Assembly: GCA_016930515.1 (NCBI GenBank)
Contig: JAFGGO010000093.1
Span: 1-38,563, forward strand
Reading direction: 5' to 3'
DNA length: 38,563 nt
DNA from: Promethearchaeota archaeon
Lineage (GTDB): Archaea; Asgardarchaeota; Lokiarchaeia; Sigyniarchaeales; SOKP01
Shown here: piece by piece, positions 36,715 through 38,563 of the stretch
Layout: each line of letters begins with the position of its first letter
Numbering within the stretch: position 1 is the first letter of the stretch
Notes under the pieces: model-generated
The model's database searches: none
Told to the model about the DNA's origin: nothing
What the model saw: the letters and a program-made list of their open reading frames with translations, nothing else
Translations under genes and position numbers: made by a program

Positions 36715-37584
36715 TTATCCGATTTTTGCTAACACGTCGTTTGCGCGAACCCTGTGGAATTTCAAGCCGATCTCGTCGGCGCTTATACCCATGGCGAGGG
36801 CCAATAATTCCGTCAAATATAAAACCGGAATGTTGTATTCCGTTTCGTATTTCTTGGAAAGGTCTCGTTGTTGAGTGTCAAATTGTTGGAAGCAGGCCGG
36901 GCAGTTTGCGACGATCACATCTGCTCCCGATTTTTTAATGCTATCCATCTTTTTCTTCAACACTTCAGCACCGTGTTCGGGGTACGCGTTGTTCACTGCG
37001 GATCCGCAACATAAGGCCAGCTCGTCGTAATCAACTACTTGAGCCCCAGTTGCAGCTACGATTTCCTTCAAGTTTTTAGGTCTGATTGGGTCGTCGGATT
37101 CCATCCACTCTACGGGACGCATGTAGTGGCATCCAGGGTGACACGCAACTTTCAAACCGCCGAGTTGCTTGATAATCGCTCCCTTGACCTTGTCAAGGTT
37201 GGCCTTGATTACATCAACGAAGTGTTTGACATCGATTGATCCCTTGAATTCCTTGCCAATTTTCGCTAATTCGATGTTAACTTTGGCCTTCTTGTTGGAA
37301 TCGTGCTTTAATTGGGTGGAGACACCTCTCAAGGTGTTCGCACAACCGTTACACAACGAAATAATGTCTTTCCCTTCGGATTCTGCCAAGCAGAGATTTC
37401 TCGCACCAATTGCCAACCAGGCATCGTTATCGAAACTTTTCATGCCAGTTGGATCGGGACAGCAGGAAAAAGGAGCTTGCGAAGTTTGCACTCCGATTTT
37501 TTCAAAAACTTTTCTCGAAGCGGCTTCGATAAAGGGAATCCTGTTTCCAATAGTACAGCCTTCAAACATTTTATATTCTGTCAT
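36715..37584 (-). CDS. hdrB: Heterodisulfide reductase subunit B
   Basis: Two CCG domains: GCTI...SCCPDP...ARNL..AE...CNGC; HPGCHY.RP...CCGS...NCPACFQQFD. Confidence 0.93.
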   Translation of the reverse strand: MTEYKMFEGCTIGNRIPFIEAASRKVFEKIGVQTSQAPFSCCPDPTGMKSFDNDAWLAIGARNLCLAESEGKDIISLCNGCANTLRGVSTQLKHDSNKKAKVNIELAKIGKEFKGSIDVKHFVDVIKANLDKVKGAIIKQLGGLKVACHPGCHYMRPVEWMESDDPIRPKNLKEIVAATGAQVVDYDELALCCGSAVNNAYPEHGAEVLKKKMDSIKKSGADVIVANCPACFQQFDTQQRDLSKKYETEYNIPVLYLTELLALAMGISADEIGLKFHRVRANDVLAKIG

Positions 37585-37599
37585 TTTTTTAACCTCCGC

Positions 37600-38106
37600 T
37601 TATTTTAATTTCTTGTCGGCACCGATGTTTTTCAATAAGGTTTGAAGTTCGTTTACATCGGGAACCGCAACAGGTGGCAATCCTAATTGCTCTCGCCTTT
37701 TTTCAATGGCGGGTTGGGAAGGAATAGCCTTTGCGCTATCGTAAATCGCTTTTGCTTGGGCGTAAATTGAATCTGGTGCATCACCTTTAGCAGTGCTCAC
37801 ATTCTTCAAGAACGAAAACACTTCCGTTAACTCGATGTGCTGTGGGCACACCTCGTCGCAGGTATCGCAAACGGTGCATCCCCAAATCGCCAATTTATCG
37901 GCGTTCAAGAGCAAATCCTTGAATCCCAAGAGAGAACCGAGAATGATATGTCGAGGGTTGTAGCCAGATGTTCCATAAAAGTCCATGGTAACGGCAGCAA
38001 CCGGACAATTATCAGTGCAGCGATTGCATTGATAACAATACTTAATGGCTTCAGATCCTATGTGGAAATCCATTATTTGTTTTCTAAATTCAAAATCTAA
38101 TGACAT
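37600..38106 (-). CDS. hdrC: Heterodisulfide reductase subunit C
   Basis: CYQCNRCTDNCP and WGCTVCDTCDEVCP (two 4Fe-4S motifs), NPRHII, R.QLGLP; directly upstream of hdrB. Confidence 0.92.
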   Translation of the reverse strand: MSLDFEFRKQIMDFHIGSEAIKYCYQCNRCTDNCPVAAVTMDFYGTSGYNPRHIILGSLLGFKDLLLNADKLAIWGCTVCDTCDEVCPQHIELTEVFSFLKNVSTAKGDAPDSIYAQAKAIYDSAKAIPSQPAIEKRREQLGLPPVAVPDVNELQTLLKNIGADKKLK

Positions 38107-38156: not shown

Positions 38157-38228
38157 GTTGGTTTTAACCCGTGCAAGGGCAGTCATGTCCAATCTATATT
38201 TTGTACTGGACAATCAACCTAAACCAAC
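38157..38228 (-). promoter_or_regulatory. Candidate eukaryote-like SECIS element
   Basis: mRNA UGAU-UGUCCAGU-ACAAAAUAUAG-AUUGGACA-UGAC (38216 to 38182): tandem G.A/A.G core, 8-bp helix, A-rich apical loop. Basal stem GUUGGUUUA (38228-38220) / UAAAACCAAC (38166-38157). Confidence 0.7.
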
Positions 38229-38363
38229 GTTCAGCTTGCGAGAGTAAATCTCTTCGCCCTGCTCGTCAACAACCGTGACATGAGCAGCGCAGGATAGTCA
38301 GCAATCAAAGCATCTGACTATCATTTCCAAGACATTTACTACTCCTTCTGGTACATCACTCAT
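38214..38363 (-). CDS. vhuU: Selenocysteine-containing small hydrogenase subunit (split C-terminus of the [NiFe(Se)] large subunit)
   Basis: MSDVPEGVVNVLEMIVRCFDC-U-LSCAAHVTVVDEQGEEIYSRKLNVGLG*. In-frame TGA at 38298-38300 (codon 22) occupies the first-Cys position of the DPCxxCxxH Ni-binding motif. Not in the ORF track. Confidence 0.9.
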
Positions 38364-38406: not shown

Positions 38407-38563
38407 TTATTTGATCCACGGATCTGGAAGCTTCAATCCGTCCAGTGCCTTGTCTTCGAACACCTGCTTTGCTACATGCATGAGGGTTTTTTCGATACCG
38501 GCGATGTTGTGATTCGTCGCCACCAGCAGGTTGGCCTTCTTGCACATGCCTTGAGCGTCGGAC
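38407..38563 (-). CDS. vhuA: 3' end of F420-non-reducing hydrogenase large subunit (MvhA/VhuA type), truncated by the window edge
   Basis: Frame from 38562 reads SDAQGMCKKANLLVATNHNIAGIEKTLMHVAKQVFEDKALDGLKLPDPWIK*. ANL.VAT.HN is typical of MvhA, and it stops without the C-terminal DPCxxC motif. Confidence 0.85.
   Translation of the reverse strand, partial: SDAQGMCKKANLLVATNHNIAGIEKTLMHVAKQVFEDKALDGLKLPDPWIK

Follow-up and report, generated by a model that had tools for sequence, protein, structure and literature searches.

The vhuU gene near the end of the window (the window being the whole stretch of 38,563 nucleotides analyzed here) raises the question of how one short reading frame can hold two UGA codons with opposite meanings. 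Read on the minus strand from 38363 to 38214, the frame gives MSDVPEGVVNVLEMIVRCFDC-U-LSCAAH...NVGLG-stop; the first UGA is predicted to encode selenocysteine (Sec), the second ends the protein, and the second also appears to be built into the very RNA structure that would direct the decoding of the first. The hydrogenase is of the [NiFeSe] type and its large subunit is split; VhuU is the small C-terminal piece, which contains Sec and supplies the C-terminal nickel ligands. We conclude that the element at 38157-38228 (minus strand) is very probably the vhuU SECIS, of the eukaryote-like Asgard type, and that the UGA it shares with the gene is read as stop. The features on which the argument turns are the following, all on the minus strand and given in the direction of transcription.

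38407..38563, minus strand: 3′ end of a hydrogenase large-subunit gene (vhuA-like), an open-ended frame that stops 43 nt before vhuU
38214..38363, minus strand: vhuU coding sequence, 49 codons plus stop, translated with TGA as U
38298..38300, minus strand: vhuU Sec codon UGA, codon 22, in the motif FDC-U-LSCAAH at a nickel-ligand position
38221..38228, minus strand: SECIS helix I (lower stem), 5′ strand GUUGGUUU, within the last vhuU codons (N-V-G-L), predicted by RNAalifold
38214..38216, minus strand: vhuU stop UGA and 5′ half of the SECIS core, preceded by U at 38217
38205..38212, minus strand: SECIS helix II (upper stem), 5′ strand UGUCCAGU, from minimum free energy (MFE) folds
38194..38204, minus strand: SECIS apical loop ACAAAAUAUAG, 11 nt, with an A-rich start and ending in AG
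38186..38193, minus strand: SECIS helix II, 3′ strand AUUGGACA, from MFE folds
38182..38185, minus strand: 3′ half of the SECIS core, U-GA-C, with the GA at 38184-38183
38167..38180, minus strand: SECIS helix III, a mini-hairpin GCCC-UUGCAC-GGGU of 4 bp (38180-38177 with 38170-38167), from MFE folds
38157..38164, minus strand: SECIS helix I, 3′ strand AAACCAAC, which pairs with GUUGGUUU
37600..38106, minus strand: hdrC-like gene (4Fe-4S dicluster; Pfam Fer4 families), starting 107 nt after the vhuU stop
36715..37584, minus strand: hdrB-like gene with two CCG domains (Pfam PF02754, 98.6 bits)

From the vhuU stop onward, the order 5′ to 3′ is thus U, UGUCCAGU, the loop ACAAAAUAUAG, AUUGGACA, U-GA-C, the mini-hairpin, and AAACCAAC. 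The sequence-only reading, made from the letters and open reading frames of the window, had taken the stop UGA (38216-38214) as the 5′ side of the core, with UGAC (38185-82) opposite, and all of its letters and coordinates are correct. The 8-bp helix with an AAAA-containing loop that it saw closed by this core is recovered by the MFE folds (UGUCCAGU/AUUGGACA), and the hairpin by itself has a folding energy of -9.0 kcal/mol; U38213 and U38185 form the non-Watson-Crick closing pair of what has been published as a “9-bp” stem. Its basal stem, said to reach into the vhuU coding sequence, is confirmed in two ways: in the isolated 78-nt element it forms with pair probabilities of 0.81 to 1.0, and RNAalifold predicts it, together with the upper stem and the mini-hairpin, from 84 orthologs and with no structural input. 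It is missing from the MFE structure of the 101-nt context (a single-sequence fold) because the upstream coding sequence competes for its 5′ strand. The UGA opposite GA is compatible in sequence with the tandem sheared G.A pairs of a kink-turn. The distance from Sec UGA to stop UGA, which had been put at about 80 nt, is exactly 84 nt. Two reservations attached to the reading were also well placed. The base before the UGA is U instead of the canonical A/G, UUGA being a minority variant (of the 84 orthologs, 76 have A here, 7 have U and 1 has C), and the helix is shorter than the eukaryotic consensus, a short helix being the norm for lokiSECIS elements. What the reading overlooked is the third, 4-bp hairpin inside the element, to which we return below.

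The structure is backed by its conservation across the phylum. A search of 400 genomes of the phylum gave 254 that matched vhuU, nearly all with one internal TGA, and 90 loci from 21 genera and three families were compared; one of these families is GC-rich and differs considerably in peptide tail and stem sequences. In 87 of these 90 loci, the frame ends in a UGA at a distance of exactly 84 nt from the Sec UGA, and this UGA opens the stem of the SECIS. The Sec codon keeps its position in 89 of the 90. The remaining locus (L089, G198 C96), the only Cys-type split vhuU among them, has TGT at this position, ends in TAA and carries no hairpin, and a covariance model of the vhuU SECIS found no match in it even at E <= 10; having neither Sec nor SECIS, it serves as a natural control that ties the structure to the Sec codon. 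In two other loci the frame ends early while the SECIS is intact, at a TAG one codon before the usual stop (L021, G185 C58) or, only 39 nt past the Sec codon, at a premature TAA (L090, G178 C49), and these early stops are recent damage, assembly errors or tolerated variants.

Conservation was counted over an 18-pair structure in a MAFFT alignment of 84 distinct vhuU sequences; some orthologs have one extra 5′ base, and for this reason we used an alignment and a covariance model instead of an exact 9 + L + 9 pattern. Paired cells make up 95.8% of this alignment, against 25 to 45% when the 3′ partners are slid by 1 to 3 columns. Cells changed on both sides number 240, against 64 +/- 12 in shuffles, and compensatory changes occur in 15 of the 18 pairs; the shuffle statistics overstate significance because relatives are not independent, while the slid controls retain this relatedness. 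By helix, 97% of cells pair in helix I (with changes on both sides in 5 of 6 counted pairs), 97.5% in helix II (8 of 8) and 90.5% in helix III (2 of 4). The coding strand of the lower stem contains third codon positions (GUU/GUA and GGU/GGC) that covary with their partners in the untranslated region (UTR): one such pair is UA in 49 sequences, AU in 12, CG in 9 and GC in 3, and the other is CG in 43 and UA in 35. The UTR therefore follows synonymous change in vhuU. Within the core, UG is invariant across the 84 orthologs; on the 3′ side, 66 orthologs begin with G and 18 with A, the next two bases (A and C) never vary, and an AAA in the loop is likewise invariant. The base before the UGA occupies the third position in the final Gly codon; 71 of the 79 Gly cases read GGA, compared with 46% in the genomic background, and this excess fits a pressure for AUGA under which U is tolerated. 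Structure was thus found conserved in orthologous loci, where the sequence-only reading had named its absence as a ground for rejection, and both the conservation and the covariation across vhuU 3′ ends support an eukaryote-like (Loki-type) SECIS whose core UGA is the vhuU stop.

This use of a single UGA as SECIS core and vhuU stop, together with the argument from proximity, was already published in 2016. In the definition of Mariotti et al. (Mol Biol Evol, PMC4989117), a lokiSECIS opens with AUGA and continues with a stem of 9 bp; its loop of 11 nt is A-rich at first and closes with a G that usually has an A before it, and GA (AA in VhuU) comes after the stem. The authors noted that in Loki VhuU.1 the AUGA motif doubles as the UGA stop, whose closeness to the SECIS precludes recoding. 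More recently, Huang, Xiao and Zhang (2024, ISME J, PMC11227280) reported that UGA stops often overlap the AUGA motif. The element in the window shares gene family, core, stem, loop and location at the end of the coding sequence with the lokiSECIS of Lokiarchaeum VhuU.1. It has the 9-bp stem (8 standard pairs plus U.U), the 11-nt loop, and in ACAAAAUAUAG the A-rich start and AG end, and it lies at the 3′ end of a gene whose Sec UGA aligns to Cys (TGT in L089). It departs from the published description in two respects. The motif is UUGA in place of what was given as “always AUGA” (PMC4989117), a U being present in both vhuU copies of this genome, and UUGA fits the looser NNGAN core of Huang et al. 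(2024). On the 3′ side the window has GA instead of the AA reported for VhuU in PMC4989117, and GA is also the majority form among our 84 orthologs (G in 66, A in 18). The text of PMC4989117 describes neither a lower stem nor a third hairpin.

For Asgard type I eSECIS-like elements, PMC11227280 gives a core 5′-GA_[G/A]A-3′, an upper stem of 7 to 15 bp with <= 2 mismatches, a loop of 8 to 20 nt and a folding energy below -5 kcal/mol. The window element, with its hairpin at -9.0 kcal/mol, falls within all of these bounds, and its lower stem UUGG/CCAA matches the form [U/C]GG_C[C/U][A/G] listed there as specific to the frhA/vhuU family. Its likeness to the eukaryotic type I SECIS (the AUGA_AA_GA kink-turn, RF00031 and relatives) lies in the tandem G.A core, the unpaired apical As and the lower helix, as well as in a predicted action at a distance on an upstream UGA under a minimal-distance rule (PMC4989117). 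Unlike the eukaryotic form, the Asgard element has a shorter upper helix, overlaps the coding sequence instead of lying far off in the 3′ UTR, and carries an extra hairpin on its 3′ side. The Rfam SECIS families gave no hit at the gathering score over the whole window, nor at E <= 10 over 664 nt, where only chance-level hits (snoRNA, drum) appeared; similarly, SECISearch3 finds nothing in Asgard SECIS elements according to both PMC4989117 and PMC11227280. The element thus resembles eukaryotic SECIS in its predicted action and is not a member of the Rfam SECIS families. The eaSECIS of Methanococcales and Methanopyrus likewise follows archaeal selenoprotein genes closely on the 3′ side, vhuU and vhuD among them, but it has GC-rich stems with a GAA_A bulge where the window element has a UGA/GA quartet. 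In the papers searched, no report of an experiment on an Asgard SECIS was found.

Elements of the same kind occur elsewhere in the genome. A strict lokiSECIS pattern (UGA, 9 nt, an A-rich loop of 10 to 12 nt ending in G, 9 nt with 8 inner positions paired, and GA or AA) matches 10 times in the 4-Mb genome, as opposed to 2, 0 and 1 times in three second-order Markov simulations. Eight of the 10 matches lie at the 3′ end of UGA-containing frames, namely SPS, two VhuD, HdrA, two vhuU and two unnamed multi-UGA open reading frames (ORFs), and a third VhuD element found with the covariance model brings the genome to nine SECIS elements. The SPS frame ends about 27 nt upstream of its core UGA. In VhuD (L099-L128, e.g., L099:1420-1519, minus strand), the frame is closed by a UAG that sits in the 5′ internal loop of the SECIS, two bases ahead of the core UGA. 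Its last codons contain the CCGA strand of the lower stem, which is nearly invariant; overlap of coding sequence and SECIS is therefore the rule and is not peculiar to vhuU.

Several of these loci deserve mention in their own right. One unnamed frame (L095:209-661, plus strand, in G000 C43, G000 being the genome of the window) is a 151-codon ORF with three internal UGAs and the motif A-U-G-U-U-G, in which two are adjacent; as in vhuU, the UGA that ends the frame doubles as the core of the SECIS (C43:4861), and the ORF has no Pfam match. The other (L094:165-605, plus strand, in G000 C130) is a 147-codon ORF, also with no Pfam match, that has two in-frame UGAs (KR-U-FLF and SST-U-TTFFC) and a canonical lokiSECIS 5 nt after its end (core at C130:1410), and it is possibly a further selenoprotein. 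At G000 C122:12541 (L098), a long HdrA-like frame containing three in-frame UGAs ends about 90 nt ahead of a lokiSECIS, and no VhuD gene was seen between the two; published Loki HdrA genes share a SECIS with a downstream VhuD. In the GC-rich family, most VhuD homologs (L129-L148) are free of internal stops (Cys-type), and the VhuD SECIS model found no match in the 20 VhuD loci of this family; unlike these homologs, the vhuU of the same family keeps both Sec and SECIS.

The genome also encodes machinery for Sec synthesis. SepSecS is present (376.7 bits), as is a protein whose match to TIGR03574 is full-length but, at 128 bits, falls short of the equivalog cut-off, and that we accordingly call only PSTK-like; SPS is itself a Sec-containing protein. 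Neither ARAGORN nor Rfam found a tRNA-Sec in the 190-contig assembly, and we treat this as an assembly gap, not as absence. The best hit to Rfam RF01852 (35 bits, below cut-off; G000 C126:65303-65389, L091:1503-1587) is a tRNA-Ser (GCU) and not a tRNA-Sec.

How, then, could the two UGAs be told apart? A ribosome covers roughly 12 to 15 nt of mRNA 3′ of its A site. While the Sec UGA (38300-38298) occupies the A site, the SECIS would begin 70 nt farther downstream, and since this exceeds the covered length, the SECIS can be folded during Sec decoding, when it could recruit the Sec-tRNA delivery machinery by way of a putative archaeal SECIS-binding factor. Once the terminal UGA has entered the A site, the lower stem would have its 5′ strand (5 to 14 nt upstream) within the ribosome, and the upper stem would have its own 5′ strand (2 to 9 nt downstream) in the mRNA entry channel; the SECIS would then no longer exist, and the UGA would be read as stop. 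The argument that a ribosome reaching the second UGA must melt the SECIS would thus appear sound as geometry. Should termination nonetheless fail, the next in-frame stop in the window is 24 codons downstream of the vhuU stop. Across genomes such an extension would run from 2 to > 36 codons, and because its length is not conserved, no extended product seems to be selected. The VhuU tail after the His is probably cleaved off, in which case occasional read-through would cost little; VhuU processing was reportedly the subject of a paper by Sorgenfrei in 1993. Mature VhuU of M. voltae has 26 aa (PMC9929600).

It does not follow that the overlap was selected as a device for discrimination. It may instead be a frozen by-product, a view to which we give nearly an even chance, and according to which any terminal UGA near a SECIS escapes recoding, while a UGA that is both core and stop stands under double purifying selection, such that its invariance is not evidence of adaptive design. 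The arrangements in VhuD and SPS, with a UAG two bases upstream of the core and a frame that ends about 27 nt upstream of it, mean that exact overlap is needed neither for a working SECIS nor for discrimination. Moreover, Mariotti et al. (PMC4989117) explain discrimination by proximity alone, and read-through would be cheap if the VhuU tail is probably cleaved. Against this, the coincidence has been kept in 87 of 90 loci from very divergent families, together with an invariant 84-nt spacing, which is compatible with selection on the arrangement. Either way, the identification of the element as the vhuU SECIS is unaffected, for the disagreement concerns why the overlap exists and not what the element is.

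A second alternative supposes some recoding to Sec, or read-through, at the terminal UGA itself; the C-terminally extended precursor that results would be tolerated because its tail is removed during hydrogenase maturation. The position of the next stop (24 codons on) and the likely cleavage of the tail after the His would allow this, but the extension varies from 2 to > 36 codons with no conservation, and the ribosome geometry set out above would leave the SECIS unfolded at that moment; we therefore regard such a precursor as improbable.

Far less credible still is a structure unrelated to Sec, be it a terminator, a hairpin for RNA stability or processing, or a K-turn site through which the downstream hdrCB genes are regulated. 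K-turns do bind L7Ae-family proteins in many contexts, the element does lie between two genes, and a T-run does follow it in paralogous loci. However, eight other UGA-containing genes of the genome are followed by the motif, which is found behind nothing else that is notable; the Cys-type vhuU (L089) lacks it; it occurs in loci both with and without hdrC downstream; and in the window no T-run comes after it.

We consider it just as implausible that some other element (a bacterial-type hairpin or a methanogen-type GAA_A SECIS) directs the recoding of UGA-22 while the K-turn hairpin is incidental; on sequence grounds this appears largely refuted. In its favor is a 6-bp CUGCUC/GAGCAG pairing 13 nt after the Sec UGA in the window, but RNAalifold on 38 diverse orthologs found 0 conserved pairs from the Sec UGA to just before the stop, and the local fold of this stretch in the window has z = -0.34 relative to shuffles. 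These two results speak against a bacterial SECIS, a conserved hairpin immediately 3′ of the Sec UGA within the coding sequence. Nor is there sign of a methanogen eaSECIS, with its two stems and GAA_A bulge: no GAA_A pattern was found within 350 nt (minus strand, 38340-37991). A search for another recoding element, the second ground on which the sequence-only reading would have been abandoned, thus turned up no candidate.

The same reading had placed the two UGAs in a polycistronic mRNA, and this part of it stands less firmly. An hdrC gene lies downstream of vhuU on the same strand, after a gap of 94 to 122 nt, in 25 of the 30 loci of a synteny comparison. In addition, a single metatranscriptome contig, from a relative and about 88% identical, reaches from 40 nt inside hdrC across both spacer and SECIS and into the 3′ end of a vhuU gene. 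The RNA data as a whole cover only small shares (0.04) of the query and consist of contigs of relatives at 85 to 95% identity, which are silent on transcript ends, strand and level and which may include DNA carry-over. The bridging contig is therefore compatible with cotranscription of vhuU and hdrC, and together with the synteny it points weakly in that direction; an internal promoter in the A/T-rich 49-nt spacer could serve hdrC instead.

No T-run is found 3′ of the element in the window, while one is present at paralogous vhuU copies that have no hdrC. Across genomes there seem to be two types of vhuU locus, one with hdrCB downstream and one with a T-run downstream. The genome of the window has a second vhuU copy (L031, at G000 C146:16700-17750, core UGA at C146:17146) whose peptide differs by one residue; its stop and core are also UUGA, a T-run follows, and its upper stem differs from that of the window by one compensated pair and two one-sided changes.

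We return finally to the third hairpin. All nine SECIS elements of the genome, from five or more gene families (vhuU, VhuD, SPS, HdrA and two unnamed genes), carry a hairpin of 3 to 5 bp that begins 1 to 4 nt after the 3′ GA and precedes the 3′ strand of the lower stem. The positions are as follows.

38167-38180 of the window, minus strand: third hairpin of the vhuU SECIS
G000 C18:2156, C43:4861, C46:5400 and C75:2931-3032: SECIS elements with a third hairpin
G000 C122:2841, C122:12541, C130:1410 and C146:17146: further SECIS elements with a third hairpin
L099-L128 and L159-L238: further loci with a third hairpin in the SECIS

The stems differ by family (CCUC/GGGG, ACCA/UGGU, AUGG/CCAU, CCCU/AGGG, CUCG/CGAG and GCCC/GGGU). 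A comparable hairpin is found in 17% of random 30-mers of the genome, a test that was defined after the pattern had been seen. RNAalifold predicts the hairpin unaided in 26 VhuD elements. In 76 distinct VhuD elements of other metagenome-assembled genomes, 94% of its cells pair, in an alignment that was fitted to the model and so leans towards structure, and the innermost pair covaries (AU in 46, UA in 16, UG in 5 and CG in 4). A GC in its loop is present in 83 of 84 vhuU and 57 of 79 VhuD elements. No mention of this hairpin was found in the papers and supplements consulted (the search covering text only), and as a feature common to the Asgard SECIS elements examined it is possibly a new detail.

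With a third hairpin beside the core and the lower stem, the element would be a three-way junction. In a k-junction (Lilley laboratory), a kink-turn is elaborated into a three-way junction, and the SECIS would resemble this in having a G.A-tandem, kink-turn-like core beside a junction of three helices, a topology read from secondary structure. One tentative and rather doubtful possibility is that Asgard SECIS elements in general are three-way junctions whose third helix is functionally required, for example, as part of the site bound by a putative archaeal SECIS-binding factor, and that this helix was lost on the way to the eukaryotic SECIS.

As to what these findings mean, the overlap of stop and core adds no new principle, and our contribution there is one of scale: an 84-nt spacing kept in 87 of 90 loci over deeply divergent Asgard families, a UTR that tracks synonymous change in the coding sequence, and a Cys-type control. 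The third hairpin could matter in a different way. SBP2 is reported to be absent from Asgard archaea (PMC4989117, PMC9723677), and a conserved extra helix beside the kink-turn core may offer a handle on how a SECIS is recognized without it; the same helix would serve as a character by which to trace the origin of the eukaryotic SECIS.
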